64,000 bases of DNA. Origin: Candidatus Gottesmanbacteria bacterium (GTDB lineage Bacteria > Patescibacteriota > Microgenomatia > UBA10105 > UBA927). Positions 5,856 to 33,636 of this stretch are shown piece after piece. Positions within the stretch are counted from its first letter, which is position 1, and each line of letters begins with the position of its first letter. The position numbers and the translations under genes are program-made. The stretch spans positions 44,714 through 108,713 of the forward strand of contig JAUXTO010000042.1 of NCBI GenBank assembly GCA_030679255.1, written 5' to 3'. The notes below the pieces were generated by a model. It saw nothing but the letters and a program-made list of their open reading frames with translations, was not told the origin of the DNA and ran no database searches.

Positions 5856-5897
5856 ATTTATATCGTAGTATACGAGCGCTGCTTGCCCTATGAAGGT

Positions 5898-6335
5898 TTA
5901 CCTGTGTTTATTTATCTCGAAGTGTCTATTTGTTATTGCACGAACACAAAAATATTTTCCCGCTATAAAATAAAATATTCTTGCGGTAGATTGAATTTTA
6001 TGCTCCATCAGATCCACGTCGGGACTTAAGTTGCTATACAATTTTTTATATGCTCCGCTATTGACTACCGATAGAATATCAATATTATTCTGTTTTAGGG
6101 TAATTTTATTGTAACAGTTTCCAACAGTGCGAAGGTTCATTAAAGCTTTTCGACCGCCATGTTTTTCTAGGTCTAGTATTTCACACAAATCATCACGGTA
6201 ATATTTGAACGTGATAGCAAATTTTTCATATTCCGGATCTTTTGATTGAGATATTTGAGCAGCAGTTTCGGGTATATATTTGTTTTCCCTTATAGGTTTG
6301 AATTGGGGTATTGGAGATGAGCCGTTGTTATGCAT
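5898..6335 (-). CDS. hypothetical protein; putative toxin partner of Panacea-domain protein (C-terminal R-x5-H HEPN-like motif)
   Basis: 145 aa; 8-nt overlap with upstream DUF4065 gene; C-terminal ...CVRAITNRHFE resembles Rx4-6H. Confidence 0.4.
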   Translation of the reverse strand: MHNNGSSPIPQFKPIRENKYIPETAAQISQSKDPEYEKFAITFKYYRDDLCEILDLEKHGGRKALMNLRTVGNCYNKITLKQNNIDILSVVNSGAYKKLYSNLSPDVDLMEHKIQSTARIFYFIAGKYFCVRAITNRHFEINKHR

Positions 6336-13544: not shown

Positions 13545-16500
13545 CTATAGTTCCTTCTTAATTTTGGGGTACTTTATAGAAGTGATAGTTTTTAGCTTTG
13601 GCACCTTATATTTCTTGAATTTGGCAAGTCGCTTGGGTTTCTTCAGAGTAAACTTTTTCAGTGCAATCATTTTGACCTTAGGAATCTTCTTGACGGTCAA
13701 CCTTGCTTTGGAGGTAGAAAGATCAGAAAGCACTTCTTTGACTTGGGATACATCAATAACACCGGCGGTCACCGCAGCACTGATCTTGTTCTTTTGTGTC
13801 GTGAGCGCTGACTTGTATTTTGAGAGCGCTTGTTTATCTACCTCATAATTTCCCACCATCTTTGGCTTTTGAGGGATATAAGAAACGTCTACAGAAGTCA
13901 CTGTGCCTGAAGGGGAAACATAGAAAAGCTTTGTCCCACTGCTTGCGGGTTGTCCTGTGAGGCCTACGGTTTGTCTCGCCTTGAGATCTTCTTTGGTTTC
14001 TGCTTGTTGATCCATAAAGTCACTATATGTTTTGGTTCCACCACGGACCAACTCGGATTGATTGGCTGATAGGGGCCGGGCATTACTATCAAAGTACGTC
14101 TGTGCTTGTGGAGTAGAGTATTGTCCGAACAACATGGACTTTACATAGTTGGGGAATGTTTGTTCTACTGGGAAACGGATATTTCCAGTCGGCGTTGTTG
14201 ATTCCCCCTTATTGTAGGATTGTAGACCTTCAACGGTTTTTCTTATCTGTACGCCACCAGGAAAAAACGCTGGTGCTACTTTGATGAGATTGCGCTTGCC
14301 TTCTTCTCTCGTTTGTTCTTCGCCAAAAAGCATTTGTCCTGTTGCTTGTCCCGCCTGCAACGATGGGGTAAGTCTAGGGTTTATTGGTAATAGGTCTAAC
14401 TTCATCCCGAATGCGTCCTTGAGTATTTTTGCCATAACGAGAGTTGCTCCGACGTAGCGCACCAATCCCGCAATATCCCTTTGTGCAACCTTAGTGAGCA
14501 GGAATTCTCCTTGCTTAATGTTGAACGACTGGAACTGAAGAAGTGTTTTGTTGATATCGCTTGATAGCGCAAGGGGTGTGTCGATACTGCCGAACACAAA
14601 TTGTGTTTTCCGAACGATACCCTTTGCGTACTCTATCGCCTGTTGTTCACTCATGTTTTGTGAAAGTGCCTTGGCTTTCGCGCCGTAATAAGCAGCACCA
14701 CGATTGATCTTTTCCGCTTTATCGAACAGGTAGAACAGGCCTTCGTCGAGCTTTGTGAGGATGTTTTTGTAGACGCCGATATTCCTATCCTGAATGAATG
14801 AATCTTTCAGCACTCCTACGCGTTCAAGTTCGTTTGATCCCCAGTTTCGGGCAAGCTTCAAGTAGCCTGTGGCTGTCCAACGTTCCCCAAGCTCTGCGTA
14901 AGTGTTGGCGCCCTGGGAAAGATTTCGAAGCGCCGAAGATACATTCAATCCCAGTGTCCCGCGATAGACTGTCTGCCTGATCGATTGAGATAGAGCCGTT
15001 ACTGGTCGGGGACCGAAGCGGTACCCGATAGGAGTGCTCTTGATGAAATTATCAATGAGGGTATCTATCTCCGTAGGACGAAGATTGATTCTGTCCGTGA
15101 GTTTTTGTAGATATTTATATTGTGACAGTTCGAGGCTTGGTGATTTTGCCTTTAATGCTTCCAGGGCAGGGTCAAGATTATATTTCCTCACTGCCCGTTT
15201 GGTATAAGCATCGAGAGCCGCCCATGTATCTTTGAGATAGTCAATCCTGTCGCTTTTACGCATGAGCAGGAACGGATCGTAGACCCCACCCGCGACCTTC
15301 TGGTCGATAAGTTTAGCGAGGGCAGGGTCAAACTCTCCCTCAACCGCGCCCTTGGTCCAGATGTGGGTGATGTAATTACTTATCTGTTTAGATGGTGGCA
15401 GTTTTAACTTCGTTGCCCAGTCCGCTAAATACCCTCTGATCTCCATTGCAACCCTGCCTTCAACGGGATTGAGTCCTACATTTTCCCCGTCCAAAGCTCT
15501 GAATATCCGTTCGTTGCTCTCAGGCGGAACCCGCTTCTGCCAGTCTGATATTCTCTTTATTTCATCCGGTAATTGCGTGAGATACGATTCGTACTGTGAA
15601 CGAAGATACTTCGCTTCATCTCCCAGCCCGATCTTTTGAAGTACCTGTTCGGGCGTTCTCAAATAATCAACAATGTTTACCTTGTTTTGTACGTTGGTGA
15701 ACGTGGGGTCAATGACGTTTTGTACACGTCCTATTGCTTGCGGGTCGTTGGCGGTAAATGCTTTTTTTACATATCTCTTGGCCTCCTCGACATTTGCGGC
15801 AACCATCTTGTCATATGAGGAATGATCGAGCGGGCTTATCCCGTCATCAAGGATTCGTTGTGCTTCTTTGGCGTCAATAAACCGTATCTGACGGGCGGTA
15901 AATCCACGACTTCCTAACTCTTGGGGATAGTTCAGAAGATTTGACAACCGTTCATTCGGAGTTTTAGGTACTTTAGAAAGTGCTTCATCAATGGTAAATA
16001 TTTTGTCCTCTATGGTACGAATAATACTCCCGACTTGGGTATCATTCTTCATAGTCTGAATGATTGCATAATCTTTTTTGTAGTCTCCTGAACCACCGAC
16101 TAAATTCACTAGTTCCTTGTTGAGTGTTGCCCGTAACGCTTGTAAGTCGTCTTTTGCTCCCGTCTTTATGAGCTTATCCGCAAACTCGTTGTACACGATT
16201 GACGCTTCTTCTGGTGTTTTGGTGAGGGAAAGACGACCACTAAGTGCGTTTTGAATCTCTGGTGTTTTGGTAAACCCCATGATCGCCAGTCGATCTGTCT
16301 CCTGGAGTTGTTTTCCTGCTGCTATTTCTTTTGGGGTAAATGTTGTTTGTCCTCTGTTTGCTTTTGTTAAGAACGATTGCTCCTCCGGTGAGTAAGAGCC
16401 TCCCGTGAGCAGATTCAAGCTAAACTTGGCTATATCCCCAGTCTTTACATCAAAGCCTTCTGGTTTAATAGGATTTCCTACACCCCATTTTAATGTGGGA

Positions 16501-16823
16501 AGCTTATTCAGTTGTGCGTCGATCTGTGGTTGATAGTCCGTCATCACTGCACGGGAGGGGATGATGTTACTCGAATATATTCCTTGTTTCTGAAGGCTTT
16601 GCTGAGAAATTGTATTTTGCTTTAATTGATTGGAAAAATTAGTTACTGCATCATTGACCCTGTTCACAAAGGGTTGTACCTGGGGCTGCAGTTGTTTCTG
16701 TACCCACGACGCTGGTGTTGGATTCTGCTGGATAAACGACTGAGCCTGACCGAACAGTTTACTTGCGGTATTTTGAATTTTCGTTGCTACTTGTTGACTT
16801 AGAGTGTCCCATAGATTAGCCAT
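13545..16823 (-). CDS. very large Q-rich hypothetical protein (virion structural-like); start set at MANLWDTLSQ, ORF track extends to 16991
   Basis: About 1090 aa; 8-nt overlap with stop of upstream gene; Q/N-rich N-terminus, K-rich C-terminus; no family recognised by eye. Confidence 0.5.
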   Translation of the reverse strand: MANLWDTLSQQVATKIQNTASKLFGQAQSFIQQNPTPASWVQKQLQPQVQPFVNRVNDAVTNFSNQLKQNTISQQSLQKQGIYSSNIIPSRAVMTDYQPQIDAQLNKLPTLKWGVGNPIKPEGFDVKTGDIAKFSLNLLTGGSYSPEEQSFLTKANRGQTTFTPKEIAAGKQLQETDRLAIMGFTKTPEIQNALSGRLSLTKTPEEASIVYNEFADKLIKTGAKDDLQALRATLNKELVNLVGGSGDYKKDYAIIQTMKNDTQVGSIIRTIEDKIFTIDEALSKVPKTPNERLSNLLNYPQELGSRGFTARQIRFIDAKEAQRILDDGISPLDHSSYDKMVAANVEEAKRYVKKAFTANDPQAIGRVQNVIDPTFTNVQNKVNIVDYLRTPEQVLQKIGLGDEAKYLRSQYESYLTQLPDEIKRISDWQKRVPPESNERIFRALDGENVGLNPVEGRVAMEIRGYLADWATKLKLPPSKQISNYITHIWTKGAVEGEFDPALAKLIDQKVAGGVYDPFLLMRKSDRIDYLKDTWAALDAYTKRAVRKYNLDPALEALKAKSPSLELSQYKYLQKLTDRINLRPTEIDTLIDNFIKSTPIGYRFGPRPVTALSQSIRQTVYRGTLGLNVSSALRNLSQGANTYAELGERWTATGYLKLARNWGSNELERVGVLKDSFIQDRNIGVYKNILTKLDEGLFYLFDKAEKINRGAAYYGAKAKALSQNMSEQQAIEYAKGIVRKTQFVFGSIDTPLALSSDINKTLLQFQSFNIKQGEFLLTKVAQRDIAGLVRYVGATLVMAKILKDAFGMKLDLLPINPRLTPSLQAGQATGQMLFGEEQTREEGKRNLIKVAPAFFPGGVQIRKTVEGLQSYNKGESTTPTGNIRFPVEQTFPNYVKSMLFGQYSTPQAQTYFDSNARPLSANQSELVRGGTKTYSDFMDQQAETKEDLKARQTVGLTGQPASSGTKLFYVSPSGTVTSVDVSYIPQKPKMVGNYEVDKQALSKYKSALTTQKNKISAAVTAGVIDVSQVKEVLSDLSTSKARLTVKKIPKVKMIALKKFTLKKPKRLAKFKKYKVPKLKTITSIKYPKIKKEL

Positions 16824-18078
16824 AGATCGGTTGACCGTTTTGATCGTATCCTTTGAATACTTTTCCGGATATTTGTCCTGTGTAATTTGGTGTGTTTTGT
16901 CCGTTTGATGAATTGATTGATAACGGTGATGCTGGAGTGGTTGTCGTTTGATTGAAGTAGTTATTGAGTGCTGATTGTGAGCCTTGACCACTCATTTGCA
17001 TCTGTCGGGCATAGGTATCTAACGCTGTTGCAGCCTGGCTTCGTTGAAGTTCTAGGGTTTGCTCAAATTGAATTTTCTGAGAGTTTATTTGAAACACTTC
17101 ATTCCGGAGAGTCTGTAAAGCAGAGAGAGAAGCTTGGGCTTTTGCAGATGCTATTTGTGACCTGCTTTGTGAAATAGAAAGAAGTTTGTTTTGAAAGTCA
17201 CTCTTTGCTTGAGAGAAAGCAGAATCCGTATCGTATTTTAGCTTCGTCTTAGCGGTAGAGTAGCCACGATCAAGATCATATTTTTGAGTGTCAATCTGTG
17301 CCATAGTGTCGCTATAGGATCGCTGTGTTAGTCCCATCTGACGTTGCTGTTCAACAGATGAAAGTTCACTGGCTGCTTCACCTGCGGACGTACTACCACC
17401 AAAGCGTTGCTGATATCCACGACGTAATTCGTCATACAGTCTTCGTGCTGCTGTAAGCGCATCTTCTTTTCGATACCCTGCGCTTGTTGCGTTGCGATCA
17501 AGAGTAGAAAGACCAGAGGTATTTTGATCATTGAGCATCTGAGTGTTCACATCGAATTGCCCTTGGATTGATTTTTGTACATCGGGATATTGAGCATTCA
17601 GAGTATTTTCAGCTTCTGTGAGATATTGAAACGAGGGGTTATACAGTGCATCAATCTGGGATTGAATATCGGGCTGGCCTTGGCCTTGTTGTGCCATGAG
17701 TTCTCGATAGCGGGATTCTTGTGAGGGGTTACGATCCATCTTAGATAATTGTTGAAGTTCTGAATCACTTGGGCCTGTGGGGGTTGTGTTCGCTCTTGTT
17801 GTTACTCCATTAACCTGACCCGTTCCTGTGTTATTGTTTCCACCGGTAACCATTCCTGAGGGCTTGGGTTGTATGTAAGGGGTGTCGTATGTTCCGGTAA
17901 CTGGTTTTCCTGCGATCGTGTTAGCTAGACCTGTGACGGGTCCAGCGCCTACGACATTAGGAGTCACCATGCTTCCAATATTTGCCACGGTTTGACCCAG
18001 TGCCTGACGTGCCTGCCCAGAACCAAATTGATTGACTGCAAGATCGTACCATCCACCTAAATTTTGAATTGCTCCCAT
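16816..18078 (-). CDS. Q/N/S/T-rich hypothetical protein (start at MGAIQNLGG with aggaga RBS)
   Basis: About 420 aa low-complexity protein; RBS AGGAGAA 5 nt upstream of ATG at 18078. Confidence 0.45.
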   Translation of the reverse strand: MGAIQNLGGWYDLAVNQFGSGQARQALGQTVANIGSMVTPNVVGAGPVTGLANTIAGKPVTGTYDTPYIQPKPSGMVTGGNNNTGTGQVNGVTTRANTTPTGPSDSELQQLSKMDRNPSQESRYRELMAQQGQGQPDIQSQIDALYNPSFQYLTEAENTLNAQYPDVQKSIQGQFDVNTQMLNDQNTSGLSTLDRNATSAGYRKEDALTAARRLYDELRRGYQQRFGGSTSAGEAASELSSVEQQRQMGLTQRSYSDTMAQIDTQKYDLDRGYSTAKTKLKYDTDSAFSQAKSDFQNKLLSISQSRSQIASAKAQASLSALQTLRNEVFQINSQKIQFEQTLELQRSQAATALDTYARQMQMSGQGSQSALNNYFNQTTTTPASPLSINSSNGQNTPNYTGQISGKVFKGYDQNGQPIYG

Positions 18079-18286
18079 ATGTTCTCCTGTGCCTAATCCT
18101 ATCCAACCGATATTTATGTTTACAATGACCAAAAATTAAGTCCTGGAATAACGGGAGGAAGTAAAATGAAAATTTGGCCTCTCCATTAAGATACACGCCT
18201 CCCGTTGTCTCAAATCTTAATCCTAAGGGGCGTTTTGGTCGTCACCTCACGCCCCATGATTATTAGTTGTTTTATAAAAGAACCAA

Positions 18287-18502
18287 TTACACACCTTTAG
18301 AATGAATCACTGAGCTTGCTTTTCCTTTGCCTGCTATGCCTGCTGTTTTCTGTAACTTGGAAGTCAATGCTCCTGTTTTGTTTGCATTTGAGACATACTT
18401 TGCATGTGCCAGCGACAGGTCACCCGCATGAACGTACTTAGCTTGTTTTGCTCCTACGTTTGCCGCTACGTCTTTACTCCATCCTTGTTTATCGATTGCC
18501 AT
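18287..18502 (-). CDS. small K/A-rich hypothetical protein
   Basis: 71-aa ORF in TerL-downstream block. Confidence 0.3.
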   Translation of the reverse strand: MAIDKQGWSKDVAANVGAKQAKYVHAGDLSLAHAKYVSNANKTGALTSKLQKTAGIAGKGKASSVIHSKGV

Positions 18503-18520
18503 ATAGTATTTTCACCTCCC

Positions 18521-18724
18521 TTATGTAAATCTTCTTTTACCTACGAAATCAATCAACATTTGAATGATCTCTTTTTTACTTAACTGCTCACCATTAGCGA
18601 TGATGAAAGTAAAAATCTCATCCTCTATGGTCCTTTCACCAATCTGTGCCTGTCCATGATTTGCCGTATTAGCCCACTGTGTGGCTACGGAATCCATGTG
18701 TTCTAAAACGTTATATGTTGTCAT
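18521..18724 (-). CDS. small hypothetical protein
   Basis: 67-aa ORF. Confidence 0.3.
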   Translation of the reverse strand: MTTYNVLEHMDSVATQWANTANHGQAQIGERTIEDEIFTFIIANGEQLSKKEIIQMLIDFVGKRRFT

Positions 18725-18748
18725 ATAGTTTTTCCTTTCTAAATGTTT

Positions 18749-18931
18749 TTATATTTTTGCTTTTAACACTCTCCATTCCATCTCGTCTCTTGTAAAAAGT
18801 TTCTTGTCGATATTTACCCGCATGGGTGGATCTCTCGGTTCACCTTCTGTTTTTCTAATGGCATCGTACTTCTTGATCCGTTCCATAATCTCAACATCAT
18901 TTGCCGTTGGTTCTGTTGTTTGTTTTGTCAT
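18749..18931 (-). CDS. small hypothetical protein
   Basis: 60-aa ORF. Confidence 0.25.
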   Translation of the reverse strand: MTKQTTEPTANDVEIMERIKKYDAIRKTEGEPRDPPMRVNIDKKLFTRDEMEWRVLKAKI

Positions 18932-18993
18932 ATCTGTTTATTCACCTCCTCTAAATTGTGAGATAAAGCTATTCATGTTTGCACGAGCAAAAA

Positions 18994-20298
18994 TCATCCG
19001 ATTCTCCATTTCTTTTTTAGTTCTTTTGCTTTTTGTAGCGATTGGTATGAGTTTGTCTTTGGTGTCTGATCAAGATTCCAGCAGTAATATTCAAACGCTC
19101 TCATGGCGTGGGAGTATTGGTTGTGAATAGGTATCTCGTTGGATTGGTTTACCATGGTCTCTCGTTTTTGAGGGTAACAATAGTTCACAAGACAGTCTCG
19201 AAACCGAGAACAATTTGGATTTGAGGATGATACATATAGCCGTGACATAAAACGATGCGCATTCCGTATCTGCGTTGGAATATCAGGGATAAACGAAGTC
19301 TTTACATAGTGTCCGAGTCTTGCAAGTTCCTCTATTGGTGATTTGCCGGTTGTTAAGTCTCTTGCAGTTCCCGCAATATCACCTGCTTCAAAGGAAGGAA
19401 TTATATATGGCTTTGCACTGACAGCTTGGACAAAGTGGTCAATATTGGCATTTGAATCTTCGATATAGTCAATCAAGCGGATTTCTGAACCTCTTTGCTG
19501 AAGAAATAGAATAACCGTTGGATCATTCACGCCAAAGTCCCACGCTAAATGAAGAGGAAGCAAAGGATCATAGTCAAAAGGAATGTATCGTGTCTCCATG
19601 TCCCAGTCTTCATACACAACACCGTGAGGCTTTTCGTATTCTGCAAGAATTTCCTGTCGATAATATCCCATGCCCATTTGTTTATATTCAGTTATCAATG
19701 CTTGTAATTCCTGGGGATCAAGTTCAGGATTATCTGAAGAAGTAAAGTGAAAACACTTGAACAGACCGCTTTGTTCTAGTGAGTAGAGTTGTCTAAATCC
19801 TTTGGGAGTTCCTGCCATGATAGCGGGAGCTTTATTGGTTATAAGGTTTGGACGAATAACTGTTGGCCATATATTTGATTCCCAATCATCAATCTCATCA
19901 CCCGCGAACGCTCCCCAATTTGAAATACCACGAAGTGCCTCCGCATTTTCAACACCAAGTAGTTGTACTTTCCCACCATTAGGAAGTGATATAGAGAGTT
20001 CCGCCTCATTCTTTTTATAGGGAAGTTTTATCCCTGTGAAATGGTCAAGCATCCGTTGTACATGGTCTGACCACACGATGTTTTTACTCTGTACTCTGTT
20101 TGGTGAAACATACGGGCATGTGAGGTTCGTTTTAAGTGCCATTTCAAAAAGCCATGAGATAAGAAGGCTTGTTTTTCTCCATTTACGGCCTGCACGAAGT
20201 TGAATAAACCGAAAACCATCATCAAGAGCCTTCAATACTTCCTTTTGTCCTGAGTGTGGTTTTGTCGGATAGAATGTATTTACTTTTATTTCGCTCAT
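18994..20298 (-). CDS. terL: terminase large subunit
   Basis: 434 aa; FIQLRAGRKWRKTSLL Walker-A-like motif and overall layout of phage TerL (ATPase + nuclease). Confidence 0.75.
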   Translation of the reverse strand: MSEIKVNTFYPTKPHSGQKEVLKALDDGFRFIQLRAGRKWRKTSLLISWLFEMALKTNLTCPYVSPNRVQSKNIVWSDHVQRMLDHFTGIKLPYKKNEAELSISLPNGGKVQLLGVENAEALRGISNWGAFAGDEIDDWESNIWPTVIRPNLITNKAPAIMAGTPKGFRQLYSLEQSGLFKCFHFTSSDNPELDPQELQALITEYKQMGMGYYRQEILAEYEKPHGVVYEDWDMETRYIPFDYDPLLPLHLAWDFGVNDPTVILFLQQRGSEIRLIDYIEDSNANIDHFVQAVSAKPYIIPSFEAGDIAGTARDLTTGKSPIEELARLGHYVKTSFIPDIPTQIRNAHRFMSRLYVSSSNPNCSRFRDCLVNYCYPQKRETMVNQSNEIPIHNQYSHAMRAFEYYCWNLDQTPKTNSYQSLQKAKELKKKWRIG

Positions 20299-26586: not shown

Positions 26587-27780
26587 ATGAGATTTGACCG
26601 TCCTCACTTTCAACGCCGCGGGTTTTCCGGAGGGAATCGTTCCCGTCCGATTAAAACCGTACCCAAAGCGGCTCTTATGGCCAGTATCGCCCAAAGTAAG
26701 ATCGCGTCCCAAAGAGAACCGGTAGTGTCAAATGAGCCCATCATCACCCACGTTTTTGCGGATTTCGCCCTTGACCGGCAATTACAGGAAAATATCCGGG
26801 CCAAGAGCTACGTTACCCCGACTCCCATTCAGGATCAGGTCATTCCGGCGATCCTTGCGGGCCGGGACGTCATCGGGACCGCTAAAACCGGCACAGGAAA
26901 GACGGCCGCGTTTCTCATCCCCCTTATCCAAAAAGTGACCCTTGACCGCGCCCAACGCGTGCTCGTCGTTGCTCCCACGCGGGAGCTTGCCTACCAAATT
27001 CATAAAGAACTTCGGGATTTTGCACGAGGTCTATCGATCCGTAGCGCACTTCTCATCGGTGGCACAGGGGAGTGGCGGCAGAAGGAAGACCTCTACCGCG
27101 ATCCGCACTTTGTCATCGCCACACCGGGACGGCTTAAAGATTTCATTGAAACCCGGGCGATTCGATTGTCAGGATTCCGCAACGTAGTCCTTGATGAAGC
27201 GGACCGTATGGTCGATATAGGTTTTATCAACGATATCAAATATTTCATATCGCTTATCCCGAAAGAACGACAATCGTTATTTTTTTCCGCGACCATCTCT
27301 GGCGGCGCTGGAGAGATTCTTACGGATTTTGTCCGTAATCCCGTGAAGGTTTCCGTCAATACTCAGGACTCAAAAGCCACCATCATGCAGGATGTCATTC
27401 CTGTCCCCGGAAACACGACGAAGCTTGCGATGCTTCATGAAATGCTTAAGAAAAAGGAATTTGACAAGGTGTTAGTGTTCGGGCGCACCAAGCATGGGGT
27501 TCAGCGGCTCTCTGATGAACTGGAAAAACGCGGGGTGAGGGCGGGCGCCATACACGGCAACAAACGGCAAAACCAACGGCAATATGTCCTTAACCAATTT
27601 GCCAGAAGCGAGATCCAGATATTACTGGCCACGGATGTAGCCAGCCGCGGTCTGGATATCCCAAACGTTTCCCATGTCATCAATTGGGATCTTCCGGAGA
27701 CCATGGATGACTATACGCACCGCATCGGACGCACCGGCCGCGCTAATAAACAGGGGATTGCCCTTACCTTCATTGACTGA
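26587..27780 (+). CDS. DEAD-box ATP-dependent RNA helicase
   Basis: PTPIQ, AKTGTGKT, DEAD (LDEADRM), SAT, HRIGRTGRA motifs. Confidence 0.9.
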   Translation: MRFDRPHFQRRGFSGGNRSRPIKTVPKAALMASIAQSKIASQREPVVSNEPIITHVFADFALDRQLQENIRAKSYVTPTPIQDQVIPAILAGRDVIGTAKTGTGKTAAFLIPLIQKVTLDRAQRVLVVAPTRELAYQIHKELRDFARGLSIRSALLIGGTGEWRQKEDLYRDPHFVIATPGRLKDFIETRAIRLSGFRNVVLDEADRMVDIGFINDIKYFISLIPKERQSLFFSATISGGAGEILTDFVRNPVKVSVNTQDSKATIMQDVIPVPGNTTKLAMLHEMLKKKEFDKVLVFGRTKHGVQRLSDELEKRGVRAGAIHGNKRQNQRQYVLNQFARSEIQILLATDVASRGLDIPNVSHVINWDLPETMDDYTHRIGRTGRANKQGIALTFID

Positions 27781-27802
27781 CCATTAGGCCATAGATAATT
27801 TC

Positions 27803-28168
27803 TTGGAAATAGTGTATAATGCACCCATAATCCAACAATCCGGAATCAGTAATTATTCTACGAAAAATCAGCGGGACATTATCCTCGACACTGCTGATAA
27901 TCTCACCCAGATAGGGCAGTGGGCACGGGATTGTTTTCATAAAGAAGAGGAGCGTATTGAGCTGTTTTTGACGCTTACCCGCAAAAATCTCAATTCTCTT
28001 CAGGGATTTCCTCTATCCACTGCGTTTGTCCATGACTATAAGAAATTTTGTAAAGGATTTGAGAAATTGGAAGAAGAATACCGCATCGGCATCAGCGACC
28101 GCTCTGAGTGGTCCAAAGGAATCCTCAAGTGGGCATCAAGCCTCACCCAAAGCTCGCATTTACTGTAA
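27803..28168 (+). CDS. hypothetical protein
   Basis: 121-aa ORF. Confidence 0.3.
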   Translation: MEIVYNAPIIQQSGISNYSTKNQRDIILDTADNLTQIGQWARDCFHKEEERIELFLTLTRKNLNSLQGFPLSTAFVHDYKKFCKGFEKLEEEYRIGISDRSEWSKGILKWASSLTQSSHLL

Positions 28169-28464
28169 TTATATCCCATAATGTGATATAATATGGGGTA
28201 TGAGTGATGAACAAGATACATGGCTAAGTATTAAAATTAAACCAACAAATTTGACGGCAGACGTTAGTGCGCTGGATGCCAAATTGGAATCAACTTTTCC
28301 TGCTGGTGTGACACAACATTATGAAGATGGAAAACGAGCTAATAGACAAAACGTGTTGGTAAAAACGGTACTTTAGATTGTTCTTTTGCCCCATATCTAA
28401 ACAGTTATGCTTCTGGTAGCATAATCCGCATGAAAAAACACTCTGTTCTCACTGCCAAACCCCT

Positions 28465-29409
28465 ATGCAGCGGTGGGGAAAAACTGCTGCAGGAAATATC
28501 CGCTGGTACTGCCCACGATGTCTTCATTCGCGCATTAGAAGACGGAAGGATGTTTCGATTCGATCGGCACATGCTCTGTTTGTCACATGGCTTACCGGTA
28601 CAGCATCGTTAGGAGAAATTGCTCGTTCAAAAAGGGTTTCTGTCAGAACACTTGAACGCCGATTTTCGTGTTTCTTGGAAAAAAAGAGCCCGGTTACATG
28701 GTCATCATCTGTCGATGTTCTTATCATCGACGGCCTCTATTTAGAACCCAGAGAGAACTGTGTTCTTATTGGAAAAACAAAAACAACAATCGTTCAGTGG
28801 TTGTTTGTCCAACGAGAAAACTATGGTTCATGGCGTCTCTTTTGCCAACATATTCCTGCCCCGCGCGTGGTCGTCTGTGACGGTCAACGAGGGATGCGGG
28901 CAGCTTTGCGTGACGCATGGCCGCATACTCTTGTCCAACGGTGCATGGTCCATATATTTCAGTTAGCAACAGCACGATTAACAAGGAGACCAAAAACTCC
29001 TGCAGGGCAAGACCTGCGTGTTTTGGTCCAGCAGCTTTTTGCTATCCATACAAGGAGACAGAAACGCCGATGGATCAGGAAGTACAGAAAATGGAGAAAA
29101 CGATATGACCATTTCCTCAAGGAACGAACAATTGGGCAGCAACCAGGCAAGAAACGGACGTGGTGGTATACCCATAAACGGATCCGGTCTGTGCGTACGC
29201 TCCTGGACAATGCACTCCCAGAATTATTTACCTACATCGGACACCCGGAAATCCCAAGGACCACGAACCACGTCGAGGGAGGAATCAATAGTAGGCTTTC
29301 AGAATTACTGTACCGTCATCGAGGAATATCCTTGGAGAAAAAGGAGGTGTTGGTTGCAACGTTCTTGGGGAGGAAACAGGGGCAAAAACCAACACGAAAT
29401 GTCTATTAG
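28465..29409 (+). CDS. IS1595-family-like DDE transposase
   Basis: 314 aa; N-terminal Zn-ribbon RWYCPRC; C-terminal TTNHVEGGINSRLSELL (TNxxEsxNxxlK) typical of IS1595/ISXO2-like transposases. Confidence 0.55.
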   Translation: MQRWGKTAAGNIRWYCPRCLHSRIRRRKDVSIRSAHALFVTWLTGTASLGEIARSKRVSVRTLERRFSCFLEKKSPVTWSSSVDVLIIDGLYLEPRENCVLIGKTKTTIVQWLFVQRENYGSWRLFCQHIPAPRVVVCDGQRGMRAALRDAWPHTLVQRCMVHIFQLATARLTRRPKTPAGQDLRVLVQQLFAIHTRRQKRRWIRKYRKWRKRYDHFLKERTIGQQPGKKRTWWYTHKRIRSVRTLLDNALPELFTYIGHPEIPRTTNHVEGGINSRLSELLYRHRGISLEKKEVLVATFLGRKQGQKPTRNVY

Positions 29410-30043
29410 CTCTGGAAAACACAGTTTTAGACCTGAAGCTGATGGCACTTATGAAGTAAGATTATTAGTGCCCTCAGTGAGACCTCACGTAGAACAAACA
29501 ATCTATTCACACAATTTTGAGCTGATTCAAATCATGGAGCAACCGGGTGATAAAGTTCTTCCTCTAACCTCTCGAGTTTAATTTTTTATTATTGTAGCTA
29601 GTAGTAAGTACTCTGTTTCCACAAAATTCAAACCCATTTCAAAGAAAATTTGTGATCGCCAGGCTCCAGCATGGTCGTCCTCCGCGCTTTCGTTTAAAAA
29701 CATTTTTCTACCTCCCTACAAGATAAAAGCCCCGCCTCGGCGGAGCAAAAAAATCCTACTATTATCGATAGACCATACGCAGATGATATACTCGAAATAT
29801 GTATTTAGTTCTTATAGCGTTATCGCTTATTACTCTTGTTGTATTAGATTGGAAAGTTGGATTACCCGTGGCTATTATAGTATTTTGTTTAGATAGGGTT
29901 ATAGATCGTTCTAGAAGAGAGTTAGAGGAAAAAATCAATAAACCACTGTAATTCGATTCTTTGTTTGAATAGGCCCATCAATCTTCCAGGTTAAAGTGCT
30001 AAAATAAGCGCAGCAATTCATTGTGTTGAAAGGAATGTACCTA

Positions 30044-30375
30044 TGACAAACCCAATTACAATATTTGAAGAAATAAAGAAAATGAATGAATACCAGTCGG
30101 AGTATTGGTCTGCGCGTTAGTTCGCGAAAATTTTGGAATATGCAGATTATCGTAACTTTGAGACTGTTATTAAAAAGGCTAAGGAATCGTGTAAACATAG
30201 CGCCCAGTCAATCCGCGATCATTTCGTTGACGTCACCGATATGATCGAAGTAGGTAAAACTGCATCACGAAGATTCGTCAAACCATACAAGAGCTTGGCG
30301 GTACTATGCCTGAGCGGTTATGGGCGGGTGATGATATTACAAAAGCAAAAAGAAGAATATCATCACAGAAATTAA
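30044..30375 (+). pseudogene. disrupted DinD/DNA-damage-inducible protein D-like gene (in-frame TAG after 25 codons, 3' frame change)
   Basis: MTNPITIFEEIKKMNEYQSEYWSAR*FAKILEYADYRNFETVIKKAKESC... matches N-terminal consensus of DinD-like proteins but interrupted. Confidence 0.4.
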
Positions 30376-30497
30376 CGAAACAATTGAGCGTCGGTGATGA
30401 ACATGATACTTCGTAAGGTTGTCAACAACCTTCCTGGTTAATTATCGAACCTCACCCAAAGCGCACATTTGTTGTAACGTCACGTTTCCCCAATTAT

Positions 30498-30995
30498 CTA
30501 TCCAATACTTGTTTGCGAATAATAGAGTGATTCGATGACTTGCAGATCGGAAGTAGGTACATCAGCAGAGAGCGATTCCAATATCGTATGAGTTTCCGGA
30601 TCTTCTAATGCTATTTTCCATTTGCCTGTATCGTTATATGCGCAACTTGGTGGAAACATATGATGATGCCACAACGCACCTTTACTAATGAGTTCCTGAG
30701 CGCGCTTTGCAATGAGCATGGAAGACGGAGAAAGATTACTTTCCATAGTATTCGATTTTTTTACATCAACATTATGGAGAAGTGCCAACAGCTCTTTGCC
30801 AAGCTCCATCATGGGTTTGGAAGAGTAGGAGATATACATTGTATTATTCGTCCGATCTTCTACCACAAATCCAAATTGTGATTTTGTATTAAACCTGCAC
30901 GTTGGGGAAAATAAGTGATAATGCCAAGTGGCTCCACGAGATTGGCAGTCAAGAGCAATTTTTTTGATCGATTTTTTATCTACCTCTATGAACAT
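30498..30995 (-). CDS. hypothetical protein with internal tandem duplication
   Basis: 165 aa; two homologous ~75-aa halves (GATWHYHLFSPTCRFN / GALWHHHMFPPSCAYN). Confidence 0.4.
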   Translation of the reverse strand: MFIEVDKKSIKKIALDCQSRGATWHYHLFSPTCRFNTKSQFGFVVEDRTNNTMYISYSSKPMMELGKELLALLHNVDVKKSNTMESNLSPSSMLIAKRAQELISKGALWHHHMFPPSCAYNDTGKWKIALEDPETHTILESLSADVPTSDLQVIESLYYSQTSIG

Positions 30996-31157
30996 ATTTT
31001 CTATAGTATCATTTTTTACAAAAATAGATGGCTTGCAAACCGCAGCTCAAGCGAAAGATGGTACCCCGTGCCGAATTGCCGCGAGTACGCGGCGTTCGCC
31101 AGCAGAGGTTTATCGTGTTAGATAGCTCCAAAATGTTTTATAGGCTATAATCACGCC

Positions 31158-31499
31158 ATGCCATCTGGTGTCTGCGCCAATTGTCATAATAAGGGTTGTG
31201 AAATCAAAGATCCCGTTGTGGCCAAATGGGATCTTTCGGCAACCACTTGGCTGGAATGCGCCTTCTCTTCATGCGCCGACGGATTAAAGGCAGCCAGAGA
31301 TGCAAGAGATTCAGGACAGTACGAAGACATTTTCCTTGCTGACGGAAGCCAAATACAAGCAGCGATGTTTGGAACCGCGGAAAAGGAAACTGCAGACTAT
31401 TACCCACATCGCGGTTGCACCAAAGCAGGGATAATACTCGGCGAAACACTGGAAGGTTATAAGCCTACGGGTCAAACTCTTTATACGCGAAGCGCCTAG
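31158..31499 (+). CDS. Cys-rich hypothetical protein
   Basis: 113-aa ORF; CANCHNKGC...C...C..C. Confidence 0.3.
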   Translation: MPSGVCANCHNKGCEIKDPVVAKWDLSATTWLECAFSSCADGLKAARDARDSGQYEDIFLADGSQIQAAMFGTAEKETADYYPHRGCTKAGIILGETLEGYKPTGQTLYTRSA

Positions 31500-31533
31500 T
31501 AAGGAGAAGCAGTTTTTGATAGTATATAAGGGT

Positions 31534-31605
31534 GGCCCCATCGTCTAGCGGTTAGGACAACGGGTTTTCAGCCCGTTTACACCAGTTCGAATCTGGTTGG
31601 GGCTA
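31534..31605 (+). tRNA. tRNA-Glu (anticodon UUC), CCA not encoded
   Basis: GGCCCCATCGTCTAGCGGTTAGGAC start typical of tRNA-Glu; anticodon arm ACGGG-TTTTCAG-CCCGT; T-arm ACCAGTTCGAATCTGGT. Confidence 0.8.
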
Positions 31606-31651
31606 CTTAAATCGCAGCAGAATAGTTATATTTATTGGAAGGAGAAATAAT

Positions 31652-32113
31652 GTGAGCGTAAATCAATATAACTTTAGAGGTCGTCTTCAGGATGTTGCAA
31701 AGGGTACTATAACTCTAAACCAGAAACTTAGTGCCATAACTACGTTAATATCATCCGTGTTAAAGCAAGATTCAACACTTCGAATTAGATATGTAGCTGG
31801 AAGAGTTACTTCCGATGGGCAGGATTTCATCAGTCAGAATCTGATAAAACTGAATATATATACTGACAAGCTTGAAAATATGTACGGGCAATACGTATTT
31901 TCTGCAGCAGATGTTTTTCCGGACGAAACATATTGGAAAAAAAATATAACGACAAAGGAACTTAAATACATCTACATAGATTTTTGGCAGAAGATATTAA
32001 AGAACGGAATTACAGATATGTATATGTCTCCTGGATGGGAGACATCAAACGGTGCAACGTTTGAACACGAATTTGCACAAAAAAACGGAATAGAAGTTCA
32101 CTACCCTATCTAA
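31652..32113 (+). CDS. DUF4406/nucleoside 2-deoxyribosyltransferase-like protein
   Basis: 153 aa; IRYVAGRVTSDG (like IYLAGPMTG) and C-terminal YMSPGWETSNGATFEHEFAQKNGIEV motif. Confidence 0.45.
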   Translation: MSVNQYNFRGRLQDVAKGTITLNQKLSAITTLISSVLKQDSTLRIRYVAGRVTSDGQDFISQNLIKLNIYTDKLENMYGQYVFSAADVFPDETYWKKNITTKELKYIYIDFWQKILKNGITDMYMSPGWETSNGATFEHEFAQKNGIEVHYPI

Positions 32114-32136
32114 CTCTTCCCGAAGATTCCGTACAA

Positions 32137-32601
32137 TTACACCCCCCGGGGGTGTGGGTTCACGCTATACGATTCATCCGCATGTACCTTTTTTGCCTCT
32201 TCTTTAGTATACGGCGAGAAAAAGACTATAATCACGCCGTCGGGATCGCGGACGACAAATTCCAATTTCCCCCAATGGTAATGCCGGACTCCAACGACCG
32301 GCTCGATTCCGGCTTTTTTGCATATCGCCAACATTTCGGATATTGAATCGACCTGAATGAAAAGGGAAATTTTTGAGGAATTCACCGTTTCCTGAAATAC
32401 ATGCGGTTTCACGCCACGGTGTCCGTCTGCAATTTCGAGGATGGTGTTACCATATTGGAAATCAGCACCGCTATATTGTTCTTTTACTTCCTGATCCGGA
32501 CCAAACGAACTGACTTTCTTAAATCCCAATGATTCATAGAATGCAAGCGATTGCTGAAAATTTTTGACTTTAATATGGATGTTGATCGATGAAATTGCCA
32601 T
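32137..32601 (-). CDS. glyoxalase/bleomycin-resistance (VOC) family protein
   Basis: 154 aa; paired beta-alpha-beta-beta-beta module pattern (SLAFYESLGF ... LEFVVRDPDG). Confidence 0.65.
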   Translation of the reverse strand: MAISSINIHIKVKNFQQSLAFYESLGFKKVSSFGPDQEVKEQYSGADFQYGNTILEIADGHRGVKPHVFQETVNSSKISLFIQVDSISEMLAICKKAGIEPVVGVRHYHWGKLEFVVRDPDGVIIVFFSPYTKEEAKKVHADESYSVNPHPRGV

Positions 32602-32722
32602 ACATTTAGTGTTTACGTCAGATTCATTGTACCATTTGGCCCGAAGGAATCAATGTATTTTGCCCCCTGATATATATTTCCAAAGTGTGGTATAGTACGG
32701 GTACTGAAAGGAGACAAAAACT

Positions 32723-32920
32723 ATGCAAGGTACAGTCAAAACAAAGACCGATAGAGGATTTGGTTTTATTACCCGCGAAGGCGAAGTAAAAGACCTTTTC
32801 TTTCATTCTAAGGACTTGGTTGGTGTGACCTATGACGAGCTTCAAGTTGGAGACGTCGTAACATTTACCGTTGAAGATGGTCCAAAAGGCCAAAGTGCGA
32901 AGAATGTAAAGAAAGTATAA
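32723..32920 (+). CDS. cspA: cold-shock protein
   Basis: MQGTVKTKTDRGFGFITREGEVKDLFFH cold-shock domain. Confidence 0.85.
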   Translation: MQGTVKTKTDRGFGFITREGEVKDLFFHSKDLVGVTYDELQVGDVVTFTVEDGPKGQSAKNVKKV

Positions 32921-32944
32921 CTTTTTTTGATTCAAAAACACATA

Positions 32945-32976
32945 AAAAGTTCCCCGCTTCGCGGGGGACTTTTTTT
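32945..32976. terminator. bidirectional rho-independent terminator between cspA and tdk
   Basis: aaaagtccccgc-ttc-gcgggggactttttt with A-run/T-run on both sides. Confidence 0.6.
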
Positions 32977-33559
32977 ATGCATCCCAACACGCCCTGCAGC
33001 GGGCTTCAAAGACGGCGTCGTCAAGTTTGGCGACGAATGCAGGATCCGGCTCGAGAGCATTGGCTTTGGTTTTTACGATTCCTACACGTTTGTGATACAC
33101 GGCATCAGATCCGCAAAGCATGCAGATGGCCGAGAGTTTGGTGACTTTATCTGCCATCGCCATGAGCGCCGGCACGGGGGTAAACGGCTGGCGGTCGAAG
33201 GTGAGCGCTAGTCCGGTGACGATCACCTGTTTGCCCTGCGAGAGGAGCGTTTCTACAACAGCGATTAATCCCTCGCCCATGTGTTGGGCCTCATCGATGC
33301 CGACGATATCCGTATCCTTAGTCACCAACGTAAGGATGTCTTTGGCAGATTTGATCATTTCACTGTCAAACGTCAGCCCCGCATGAGAGTAGAGCTTTTT
33401 TGCGCGACCGTAGCGTATATCGATATCCGGCTTGAACACCTGTACTTTTTTCTTGCCTATGGTCGCCCGTTTGACCTGGCGGATGAGCTCCTCAGTCTTG
33501 CCGCAATACATGGGTCCGGCGATGACTTCCAAATAACCGAGTTTAGTTTTCATGTTCAT
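32975..33559 (-). CDS. tdk: thymidine kinase
   Basis: GPMYCGKTEELIRQ P-loop, IVGIDEAQ, C-terminal Zn cysteines. Confidence 0.85.
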   Translation of the reverse strand: MNMKTKLGYLEVIAGPMYCGKTEELIRQVKRATIGKKKVQVFKPDIDIRYGRAKKLYSHAGLTFDSEMIKSAKDILTLVTKDTDIVGIDEAQHMGEGLIAVVETLLSQGKQVIVTGLALTFDRQPFTPVPALMAMADKVTKLSAICMLCGSDAVYHKRVGIVKTKANALEPDPAFVAKLDDAVFEARCRACWDA

Positions 33560-33602
33560 ATTCTACGCCCCCATTTTTCATAAATGAAGAAGGAAAAAGC
33601 CT

Positions 33603-33636
33603 ATCACAAAATTATGCACGTGCATAATTTTGTGAT
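33603..33636. promoter_or_regulatory. 34-bp perfect palindrome (candidate operator) in tdk/orf84 divergent region
   Basis: ATCACAAAATTATGCAC|GTGCATAATTTTGTGAT, 44 nt upstream of tdk start. Confidence 0.5.

Follow-up and report, generated by a model that had tools for sequence, protein, structure and literature searches.

The locus analyzed here occupies positions 28200–32120 of the window, the whole 64,000-nt stretch of DNA that was studied, and has a GC content of 0.419 (0.400 without its insertion sequence) against a window mean of 0.466 (sd 0.035), thus agreeing with the drop seen in the preliminary description. The objects listed in that description were all present, although several had to be corrected. 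To the left, the variable zone is anchored by a conserved 121-aa gene (27803–28168, + strand), adjoining the helicase gene also in the relatives L002–L007, with 56–93% aa identity. It is followed by the 5′ half (28200–28335, +) and the 3′ half (29421–29581, +) of a split 98-codon ORF having an extended −10 element (TGATATAAT, 28184–28192) 7 nt 5′ of its ATG in a leaderless-type layout, with an insertion sequence (IS) between the halves. The previously noted 58-aa ORF indeed exists, but at 28200–28376 instead of 28211–28387 and as the 5′ half of this IS-cut frame. Next comes an AT-rich spacer that is absent from L002, where truly non-coding DNA amounts to about 460 nt (29582–30041; GC 0.374 for the enclosing 29421–30041) and not the approximately 600 nt first given. 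The 50-aa hydrophobic ORF reported within it (29799–29951, +) was found with a leaderless-type extended −10 at 29784–29792, and a terminator-like hairpin on the minus strand lies at 29729–29746.

The DinD/Bro-N family gene to the right of the spacer (30043–30416, +; NCBIfam DinD matches its stitched sequence at 2.2e-33) was aligned to the intact gene of L002, which matches PADLOC PDC-S13 at 2.4e-114. The in-frame TAG described earlier is there (30118–30120, CAG in the L002 gene), together with a previously unlisted 466-bp internal deletion whose junction at 30269–30276 gives a frameshift, such that the C-terminal 47 codons are kept in another frame. Measured against the intact L002 gene, the deletion and the stop codon directly show decay. 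This module is flanked, in the window as well as in L002, by a 34-nt repeat of the end of the 121-aa gene. The first copy (28135–28168, +) is the last 34 nt of that gene, and the second (30444–30477, +; 82% identical), a duplicated 3′ end including the stop codon, forms the right boundary of the module and has the same position in L002 (3019–3055).

Beyond it lies cargo specific to this genome, encoding a 165-aa protein (30498–30995, − strand) of two alpha-beta-beta-beta-alpha repeats, each with a W-H-x-H...C...E motif. That its halves are homologous, as proposed, was borne out by a BLASTP comparison of the two (E = 8e-13, 36% identity over 50 aa), and the protein belongs to an unannotated family of about 147 clusters. 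An att-like scar then follows (31061–31093, −), in which 31061–31077 matches the 3′ end of the L002-type tRNA-Glu at 16 of 17 nt, but the window's own tRNA-Glu only at about 11 of 17, before a hairpin (GCCGCGAGTACGCGGC) at 31078–31093. In L002, this 17-nt tRNA end occurs three times in a row, with two of the copies adjoining its tRNA. The 113-aa ORF (31158–31499, +) has the six Cys residues expected from its description as Cys-rich and a leaderless-type TATAAT (31146–31151) 6 nt 5′ of its ATG. No relatives of it were detectable, nor any homologue of the 98-codon ORF besides its own fragment, and these two ORFs may therefore not be genes. The tRNA-Glu(UUC) lies inside the patch, as stated before (31534–31606, +; Rfam 61.3 bits). 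It is 73 nt long, differing from the 75-nt tRNA-Glu found at the locus in all relatives, and is on the strand opposite to that of the L002 and L007 tRNA. The neighboring DUF4406 or nucleoside 2-deoxyribosyltransferase-like gene (31652–32113, +; GTG start with a Shine–Dalgarno sequence) is absent from the relatives, and its DUF4406 assignment was confirmed at 27.7 bits against a cut-off of 22 (Pfam 3.7e-06), covering only the C-terminal third. It also matches PHROG 355 (1.1e-06) and, weakly, a phage NDT. The original tRNA-Glu was probably replaced by a different copy arriving with the 113-aa and DUF4406 genes, which we take only as a moderate inference because the tRNA-Glu sequences vary among relatives too.

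When the locus was compared across relatives with helicases 73–91% identical, all of the sequences being metagenome-assembled, the helicase, the 121-aa gene, thymidine kinase (TK) and DinB were kept as anchors, while the DNA between them was entirely different in each genome. In L003, the 121-aa gene is followed immediately by a two-component and copper-ATPase island, L005 has tRNA-Glu alone between that gene and TK, and L007 has a cold-shock gene and tRNA-Glu there. The fine comparison rests on one close relative, L002 (helicase 91% identical), which has five blocks in common with the window (helicase/121-aa gene, DinD/34-nt repeat, tRNA-fragment motif, glyoxalase and cold-shock gene) and is unlike it in the four intervals separating them, giving four exchange slots between conserved anchors. 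Since the glyoxalase/VOC-family gene (32137–32601, −) is common to L002 only, it still belongs to the variable zone, as in relatives does the cold-shock gene, and it does not bound the patch as had been thought. The locus is thus not intact across relatives, and the earlier interpretation as a decaying integration hotspot with the tRNA inside stands in its main part, supported by variable content between kept anchors, att-like repeats, a recombinase in a relative and the decay of DinD. The patch is a hypervariable islet between the conserved 121-aa gene and the thymidine-kinase gene, not one system, and tRNA-Glu is its fixed landmark in this Gottesmanbacteria lineage.

The duplicated 17-nt and 34-nt target fragments, together with an element in one relative that carries a recombinase and sits at this tRNA, suggest that the islet would have been built through site-specific insertions recurring at the 3′ ends of both tRNA-Glu and the 121-aa gene. 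That relative is L011, in which a 494-aa large serine recombinase (Resolvase, Recombinase and Zn_ribbon_recom domains) has its end within or beside tRNA-Glu, next to a Rep protein and a reverse transcriptase. It is nonetheless conceivable, though in our judgment improbable, that site-specific integration at the tRNA played no part and the differences arose through ordinary indels, IS-mediated rearrangement and the loss of genes from an intergenic zone under little constraint. The patch has neither a recombinase nor an integrase gene, no integrase was found elsewhere in the window or in L002, an IS is present, the att-like repeats are short, and the flipping orientation of tRNA-Glu and the cold-shock gene among relatives suggests inversions. 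Against this reading stand the direct repeats, which correspond exactly to a tRNA 3′ end (17 nt) and to the end of a gene including the stop codon (34 nt) and are classical footprints of integrase-mediated insertion, and also the serine-recombinase element at the homologous tRNA and the island-like cargo of defence candidates, a toxin–antitoxin pair and metal resistance.

The search for terminal inverted repeats and a target-site duplication revealed a complete IS of 1077 bp (28336–29412, +) belonging to the IS256 superfamily (IS1249-like, zinc-ribbon variant). Its 25-bp inverted repeats (IRL 28336–28360, IRR 29388–29412) are complementary at 22 of 25 positions, and the 8-mer TGGAAAAC stands directly outside both ends (28328–28335 and 29413–29420) as a perfect duplication. 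Deleting 28336–29420 restored the single open frame of 98 codons, the chance of this frame being open by accident being about 5–10% by our own estimate. The intact inverted repeats, the perfect duplication and the exact frame restoration together show the insertion. The 314-aa transposase ORF was confirmed at 28465–29409, but its designation as IS1595-like was rejected, as the catalytic core matched Transposase_mut (34.6 bits, Pfam cut-off 21) and MULE, as well as NCBIfam IS1249 (4.4e-78) and IS256_Zn_var (6.5e-39). The transposase resembles those of IS1/IS1595 in the type of its N-terminal zinc ribbon alone, and this was probably behind the original call. Near-identical and related copies were found at other insertion sites in other samples, with the IS ends being the same in the L163 and L082 insertions and the flanks different, and other family members have 8-bp duplications and the same inverted-repeat consensus. 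An empty-site allele was not found among the sequences compared. The IS is complete and looks functional.

The expression signals of the transposase (28414–28438, +) comprise an extended −10 (TGGTAGCAT, 28414–28422), a 7-nt spacer, an ATG (28430–28432) and an A6 run (28433–28438), and four neighboring genes have the same extended −10 at 6–7 nt from their ATG. The transposase reading frame (28441–29409, +), encoding LCSHC...(M)QRWGKT...RWYCPRC as a four-Cys ribbon followed by a Mutator-type core, is one base out of register with that ATG. Across the family, an out-of-frame ATG followed by a run of 5–8 A was found in 60 of 80 members, with the ATG in frame in only one; 56 of the 60 have TGnTAnnnT 5–8 nt 5′ of it, and both +1 and −1 requirements occur, down to 43% identity. 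When clustered at <60% identity, 18 of 21 clusters were entirely out of frame. The two upstream Cys codons are invariantly TGY, varying only at the third position, while the unshifted ORF spans 5–96 codons and is unconserved, and 17 of 80 members carry a non-start codon in place of the internal Met. Recoding the N-terminus let the match to the IS1249 profile begin at position 2 instead of 11, raised the zinc-domain scores and completed the zinc domain of the profile.

This conservation behind a leaderless-type promoter implies obligatory slippage, and judging from sequence, the transposase appears readable only after a one-base slip on the A-run right after the start codon. Such a slip in transcription or translation on the A6, directly after a leaderless AUG, would join Met-Lys-Lys to the frame encoding the first CxxC of the zinc ribbon, and the need for it would hold transposase output low. 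Alternatively, the gene could simply be dead through a one-base deletion in the A-run, an IS fossil like the DinD gene; the ATG at 28430 is indeed out of frame, gene callers do start at the internal Met, leaving out half of the zinc ribbon, and there is no second copy within the window. We consider this unlikely, however, with the same layout, +1 or −1, kept in three-quarters of the relatives, with three copies of 85–90% identity at different sites all keeping the A6, and with no damage to the inverted repeats, the target duplication or any residue that is invariant in the family alignment. Many members also assemble as IS-sized contigs, a signature of multi-copy elements.

We regard as likely the full explanation of a hotspot formed by site-specific insertion, subsequent erosion, and a recent IS with a slippage-dependent transposase. 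Erosion has cost the DinD-type gene 466 bp and given it a stop codon, with no recombinase left, and the entry of the complete 1077-bp IS into the 98-codon ORF is the latest event. That the whole patch instead arrived recently as a single island, for instance as the remnant of a prophage with its own tRNA, would agree with the low GC and with the tRNA adjoining a phage-type nucleoside deoxyribosyltransferase-like gene, but is very unlikely considering that the patch is mosaic, some of its blocks occurring in L002 and others not, with GC from 0.357 to 0.491 between individual genes and blocks, that phage structural and replication genes are absent from it, and that neither the tRNA nor the 113-aa and DUF4406 proteins had matches in a viral collection. 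A mis-assembled or chimeric contig is hardly credible at all, for although the Logan assembly of SRR13727518 is interrupted within the patch, between L001 (ending at 30233) and L162 (starting at 30217), these two contigs reproduce 26587–30233 and 30217–33629 exactly, a 32-nt near-palindrome lies at the interruption, and L002 is colinear across it.

The decaying integration hotspot around tRNA-Glu is ordinary but real, and of a kind already known; the unexpected part of the locus is the IS with its slippage-dependent transposase. In tRNA-linked islands, an integrase directs insertion into a tRNA gene at its 3′ end, and a duplicated tRNA 3′ fragment is left behind. The window likewise has a tRNA landmark, a 17-nt duplicate of a tRNA 3′ end, cargo that is strain-specific and includes defence-type and toxin–antitoxin genes, and a recombinase element at a relative's tRNA. 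It differs in that the islet is tiny (about 4.4 kb) with no recombinase left, that variable DNA flanks the tRNA on both sides, that a protein gene contains a second att-like site at its 3′ end, and that the L011 recombinase is of the serine and not the tyrosine type. The DinD remnant aligns to positions 12–83 and the C-terminus of the E. coli DinD (NCBIfam NF008573)/Bro-N profile, and the intact L002 orthologue matches the PADLOC candidate system PDC-S13 over its full length, whereas the window copy is a pseudogene.

With the IS256 family and its IS1249 group (NCBIfam 'IS256 family transposase, variant Zn-binding type'), the IS shares a Mutator-type DDE core, an N-terminal four-Cys ribbon, a single transposase gene extending into the right inverted repeat, inverted repeats of about 25 bp and an 8-bp target duplication. 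IS256-family elements are typically 1.2–1.5 kb, whereas this IS has only 1077 bp and about 326 codons, its transposase falls short of the cut-offs curated by NCBIfam (263–275 versus 300, and 134 versus 150), its profile match ends at position 313 of 382, and it has an out-of-frame start codon behind an A-run. We found no report in the literature of slippage of this kind in the IS256 superfamily. Known slippage-expressed ISs include IS1 with its A6C, the IS3 family with −1 frameshifting and IS1447 with +1 transcriptional slippage (PMC6211511), and transcriptional realignment on A/T runs is among the subjects of Baranov et al. 2005 (PMC1088944). In common with these, a homopolymeric A-run would be misread to give full-length transposase, with family-wide conservation and a presumed role in throttling transposition. 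Unlike in these, however, the slip site here is at codons 2–3, right after a probably leaderless AUG, with no upstream OrfA/InsA domain and with a short, unconserved unshifted product. The family is also unusual in having both +1 and −1 types, and runs of only 5–8 A, shorter than the at least nine A usually needed for efficient elongation slippage (PMC1088944, as cited in PMC12709180). In E. coli, initiation can insert additional A's at short A/T tracts close to where transcription starts (PMC12709180), and the IS similarly has a short A-tract within the first ten transcribed bases and a sigma-70-type −10; but while the tract in such reiterative initiation begins at the start site and changes the length of the 5′ UTR, that of the IS would begin at +4, within the coding sequence, and thereby alter the frame.

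The variable patch at 28200-32120 is indeed an insertion hotspot that has decayed, with tRNA-Glu as its anchor, and as such is of a known kind; the single feature in it that may be new biology is the conserved out-of-frame ATG-poly(A) start of its insertion sequence (IS) transposase. The 165-aa protein of the patch is found at NCBI as Q8L37_07305 [Candidatus Gottesmanbacteria bacterium], and the loci encoding the most similar DEAD-box helicases were from Gottesmanbacteria or Patescibacteria MAGs. Many records named 'TPA_asm: uncultured Gammaproteobacteria bacterium' (L002, L004, L005, L008 and others) were Patescibacteria by gene content and by their synteny with Gottesmanbacteria, and the organism labels of that MAG deposit appear unreliable. 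The lowered GC content of the patch was genuine, with 0.419 for the whole patch and 0.400 without the IS, as compared with 0.466 for the window (sd 0.035 in 1-kb windows), and 29501-31000 was among the window's lowest stretches. Mis-assembly of the patch was also considered, as one Logan contig of the same sample ends, and another begins with 17 nt of overlap, exactly at a 32-nt near-palindrome (30216-30247) within the remnant of a DinD gene. The same near-palindrome is conserved in L002, the closest of the relatives' loci, which is colinear with the window across this break, and the independent Logan assembly (SRR13727518) reproduced window positions 26587-30233 and 30217-33629; mis-assembly is therefore unlikely.

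Comparing the locus across relatives, we found that the helicase, a 121-aa gene (27803-28168, +), thymidine kinase, an 84-aa gene and DinB were conserved anchors, with the content between them differing for each genome. The L005 locus had tRNA-Glu alone, L007 had a cold-shock gene and tRNA-Glu, and in L003 the 121-aa gene was directly followed by two-component and copper-ATPase genes over at least 9 kb. Encoded at 5200-14800 in L003 were a two-component system, two transport proteins of heavy-metal type with 606 and 1061 aa, and accessory membrane proteins, a content suggestive of a copper/metal island in this Patescibacteria genome. The order in L002 was an 85-aa ORF, DinD, membrane proteins, a DUF1828/PDC-M24B protein, tRNA-Glu (-), glyoxalase, a DUF433/DUF5615 pair and the cold-shock gene. 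Window and L002 had five blocks in common at 78–91% nucleotide identity and differed in four intervals, these being 28172-30041 (an ORF split by the IS, and a 50-aa ORF), 30478-31049 (the 165-aa gene), 31106-32164 (a 113-aa ORF, tRNA-Glu (+) and DUF4406) and the spacer between the glyoxalase and cold-shock genes. Presence/absence polymorphism between relatives, as used to define a tRNA-targeted island, was thus evident. An Rfam scan of 27500-33000 gave only the tRNA above threshold, with cspA-thermoregulator, Phe-leader and CrcZ far below their gathering scores; the weak cspA thermoregulator match (31.8 bits against a gathering score of 78) at 32674-32975, which spans the cold-shock gene and the region 5' of it, probably reflects coding-sequence similarity alone.

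The stitched DinD remnant (30043-30416) matched the NCBIfam DinD model in two pieces (2.2e-33, 115.9 bits), below the >242 bits required for a full-length member (NF008573), whereas L002, having a helicase 91% identical to that of the window, carried an intact 277-aa DinD gene at the equivalent position. That intact gene encodes a Bro-N domain and matched the PADLOC candidate PDC-S13 (2.4e-114). As compared with L002, the window copy had lost 466 bp (L002 2384-2849; junction at 30269-30276 with 3-nt microhomology), a deletion that causes a frameshift, and had furthermore a CAG to TAG change at 30118-30120. With an internal deletion as well as a stop codon, it is therefore a pseudogene.

The final 34 nt of the 121-aa gene, stop codon included, were found again at 30444-30477, just after the DinD remnant, and likewise occurred twice in L002 (1816 and 3025), while no second copy was found in the relatives lacking DinD. 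As the repeat flanks DinD in both window and L002, we infer that the DinD module entered the 3' end of the 121-aa gene in their common ancestor. An orphan tRNA fragment at 31061-31077, GTACCCCGTGCCGAATT, was the reverse complement of the 3' end of L002-type tRNA-Glu (16/17 match), and was followed by a hairpin with compensatory changes across its three copies. In L002 this tRNA-Glu 3' end occurred at 5632 and 5787 as well as in the tRNA itself (5936), with 5600-5935 forming two tandem units beside the tRNA, each composed of the 17-nt 3' end, the compensated hairpin and a terminator-like hairpin. A direct repeat of a tRNA 3' end at the boundary, another hallmark of tRNA-targeted islands, was thereby present in both genomes. 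A separate 28-nt 5' half of tRNA-Glu was located at 7277-7303 in L002, beyond the DUF433/DUF5615 toxin-antitoxin pair, and together the L002 fragments suggest repeated integration on both sides of the tRNA. In the relative L011, the 3' end of tRNA-Glu was adjoined (15968-19731) by genes for a reverse transcriptase of 316 aa, a Rep_ORF2/G2P-type initiator of 303 aa and a large serine recombinase of 494 aa, which make up a compact integrative element of candidate-phyla bacteria. No site-specific recombinase was encoded within window positions 28200-32600, L011 being the only locus with such a gene. At the equivalent site, L013 had a remnant of a Rep gene.

The tRNA-Glu of the window itself (73 nt) differed from those of all seven relatives at the locus by two indels and in the acceptor and T stem, where the changes were compensatory, and lay on the strand opposite to that in L002. 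Since it was unlike the tRNAs of the relatives, and since the orphan fragment at 31061-31077 mismatched it, the original tRNA-Glu may have been replaced by a copy arriving together with the 113-aa and DUF4406 genes; because tRNA-Glu varies between the relatives too, we hold this with moderate confidence. A phage origin of the 113-aa/tRNA/DUF4406 block was rejected, with no matches in IMG/VR and only a marginal NDT match in a phage collection. With polymorphic slots, att-like repeats and a broken DinD gene, the decaying integration hotspot proposed in the preliminary description was borne out. The patch illustrates in detail how the small genomes of Patescibacteria, usually called streamlined, still keep a dedicated exchange site, with defence-type, toxin-antitoxin and metal-resistance cargo turning over between close relatives.

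Among the remaining cargo, the 165-aa protein (30498-30995, -) was indeed made of two homologous halves, through a true internal duplication. A word-indexed search retrieved only the protein itself, while a full phmmer search gave 147 cluster representatives, mostly of 160–170 aa, corresponding to a family of about 147 clusters at 50% identity. The pattern W-H-x-H-x-L-x-P-x-C-x-F-N...E was conserved in both halves, with invariant H25, H27, C33 and E46 in the first of the tandem repeats and W109 and C118 in the second, where H110, H112 and E131 were nearly invariant; the family also included single-repeat members of 80–100 aa and rare multi-repeat members of 650 and 1102 aa. Sequence searches of Pfam and PDB gave no match. 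An AlphaFold model from the single sequence was useless (pLDDT 43.7) and one based on the alignment was confident (pLDDT 93.6), with a structural neighbour search using the latter giving none that was convincing. Our best guess is a small metal-binding protein; the VOC superfamily of glyoxalases, bleomycin-resistance proteins and dioxygenases, with its paired beta-alpha-beta-beta-beta modules, was considered as a possible affiliation. The family that the protein represents lacks annotation and, with its conserved His-x-His/Cys/Glu motif, deserves a Pfam entry. The DUF4406 assignment (PF14359) also held, with 27.7 bits against a gathering score of 22, for the C-terminal third of the protein only, as solely profile positions 46–91 were aligned. 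In PADLOC and PHROGs, patch proteins gave only weak PHROG matches for the DUF4406 protein, the best being nucleoside 2-deoxyribosyltransferase (1.1e-06), and the 113-aa ORF had no detectable relative in any search. At 29729-29951, the 50-aa hydrophobic ORF (+), with its leaderless-type promoter at 29784-29792, faces an ORF on the minus strand. The latter stops 16 nt short of a strong terminator hairpin on that strand (29729-29746), and the geometry resembles that of a type I toxin/antisense RNA pair.

The IS was 1077 bp long (28336-29412), with 25-nt inverted repeats (28336-28360 and 29388-29412, 22/25 complementary) bracketing the transposase ORF and an 8-bp target-site duplication, TGGAAAAC, directly outside both arms (28328-28335 and 29413-29420). 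Removal of 28336-29420 joined the fragment at 28200-28376 in frame with 29421-29581 as one ORF of 98 codons; the '58-aa ORF fragment' of the preliminary description thus exists, but as the 5' half of an ORF that the IS has interrupted. Homologue searches with the 98-aa ORF, including for an intact version that would prove an empty site, matched only its own fragment. The case for its being a gene consists of the restored frame, its leaderless-type promoter and the duplicated target site. No other IS copies or other long repeats were present in the 64-kb window. Two metagenome loci, L163 (transposase 93% identical, from a different sample) and L082 (90%), had IS ends that were the same to the base within unrelated flanks, and related elements were of 1.07–1.10 kb, with the inverted-repeat consensus GAGYTAAKTGACATTTCGTG and 8-bp duplications. 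The two inverted repeats mismatched only in a three-base block (28349-28351 versus 29397-29399) being AAA on the top strand at both ends, such that the ends differ by an inverted AAA/TTT triplet. As this asymmetry recurs in the diverged members L086, L096, L154 and L158, it may serve to distinguish the two IS ends functionally.

Although first described as 'IS1595-like', the transposase matched no IS1595 catalytic model in either Pfam or NCBIfam, whereas Transposase_mut (34.6 bits, cut-off 21) and MULE (29.7 bits, cut-off 27.6) were both above threshold; likeness to IS1/IS1595 was limited to the N-terminal zinc ribbon, where the domain common to these families (NF050000) scored 18.9–25.1 bits, under its cut-off of 28. 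The transposase is a relative of NCBIfam IS1249 (4.4e-78, 263.1 bits, curated cut-off 300), IS256_Zn_var ('IS256 family, variant Zn-binding type'; 6.5e-39, 134 bits, cut-off 150) and IS256 (46.7 bits, threshold 150), under the naming threshold of each. The IS is thus a new, unnamed and intact member of the IS256 superfamily. The family is abundant, with 615 protein clusters at E <= 1e-10, many of them on IS-sized contigs.

The called start of the transposase, M28465 (MQRWGKT...), omits the first CxxC of the zinc ribbon. Upstream of M28465, the transposase frame reads stop-HNPHEKTLCSHCQTP-M, showing that the first CxxC is encoded, and no ATG, GTG, TTG or near-cognate codon precedes it in that frame. 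The sole ATG (28430) is followed by A6 and is one base out of register with the transposase frame; one added A, or a -1 ribosomal slip, at A6 would give MKKTLCSHCQTPMQRWGKT. With the N-terminus recoded in this manner, the start of the IS1249 profile match moved from position 11 to 2 and its score rose from 263.1 to 274.8 bits, while two zinc-domain models increased from 18.9 to 25.1 and from 16.7 to 24.7 bits.

This arrangement was analyzed in a set of 80 members, comprising the window and 79 usable homologous metagenome loci (43–90% identical). In 60 of the 80, A5-A8 came directly after an ATG that was out of frame with the CxxC, with 27 requiring +1/-2 and 33 requiring -1/+2, while an in-frame ATG-poly(A) occurred once; nine of the remaining members formed a subgroup with an ordinary in-frame ATG (MT[IL]SG...). 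When clustered at 60% identity, 18 of 21 lineages were wholly out of frame. Internal initiation, by which the transposase would be made from the internal Met as in the called start, is a poor explanation, since the Met position is a non-start codon in 17/80 members and the two upstream Cys codons are invariant TGY across 73 distinct sequences, with the unshifted ORF varying from 5 to 96 codons. The same invariance, together with the 18 out-of-frame lineages, makes a recent inactivating mutation of the transposase frame an equally poor one. The frame break is thus evolutionarily conserved, falls on a slippery homopolymer and has coding constraint to either side of it, as expected of programmed recoding (frameshift or transcriptional realignment) in IS transposase genes. 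Between near-identical DNA copies, in the few pairs compared, there was no variation in A-run length that would indicate phase variation.

Of the 60 out-of-frame members, 56 had an extended -10 motif (TGnTAnnnT) 5–8 nt before the ATG, in the window as TGGTAGCAT at 28414-28422, 7 nt from ATG 28430, where a promoter scan also flagged 28398-28425. Four patch genes, encoding the 98-aa ORF, the 50-aa ORF, the 165-aa protein and the 113-aa ORF, had the same leaderless layout, in which TGnTAnnnT or TATAAT precedes the ATG by 6–7 nt and a Shine-Dalgarno sequence is absent (28184-28200, 29784-29799, 30993-31011 (-) and 31146-31158, respectively), in contrast to the DUF4406 gene with GGAGA upstream of its GTG; leaderless transcripts therefore appear to be normal in this genome. 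The transposase mRNA would accordingly begin at the AUG, with the A-run at +4 to about +9, and a slip on that run, whether of RNA polymerase on a still short hybrid or of the ribosome at AAA-AAA, would be required for transposase production, with the slip rate setting its dose. From these sequence patterns we consider it possible, although somewhat short of probable, that a widespread group of IS256-superfamily elements of about 1.08 kb, here mostly from metagenomes and many from groundwater, makes its transposase solely via obligatory slippage on A5-A8 at codons 2–3 of a leaderless mRNA, with the ATG deliberately out of frame.

Because of the out-of-frame ATG-A5-A8, seen at window positions 28414-28444 and among loci L082-L163, public gene calls begin at the internal Met and lose half of the zinc ribbon, so that transposases of this family are at present called with a truncated N-terminus; if the proposed slippage is true, such genes are systematically mis-annotated in this way, and the recoding layout would be one undescribed for any IS family. 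IS genes are known to undergo slippage at longer A/T runs (PMC1088944; PMC6211511), and short A-tracts slip during initiation (PMC12709180). We found no report of slippage or frameshifting in IS256/IS1249 or in IS of candidate phyla, within an incomplete coverage of the literature, and novelty of the ATG-A-run layout for IS256/IS1249 is therefore probable but not certain. A true recoding signal would hold a new position among the routes of IS self-limitation, directly after initiation on a leaderless transcript, and would make a simple, naturally occurring system in which to test slippage at short A-tracts. In its Mutator/IS256-type catalytic domain, inverted repeats and target duplication, which in the IS256 family is of 8–9 bp, the element agrees with that family, differing in being shorter, with 1077 bp (1.07–1.10 kb in its relatives) as compared with the 1.2–1.5 kb that is typical of IS256-family elements.
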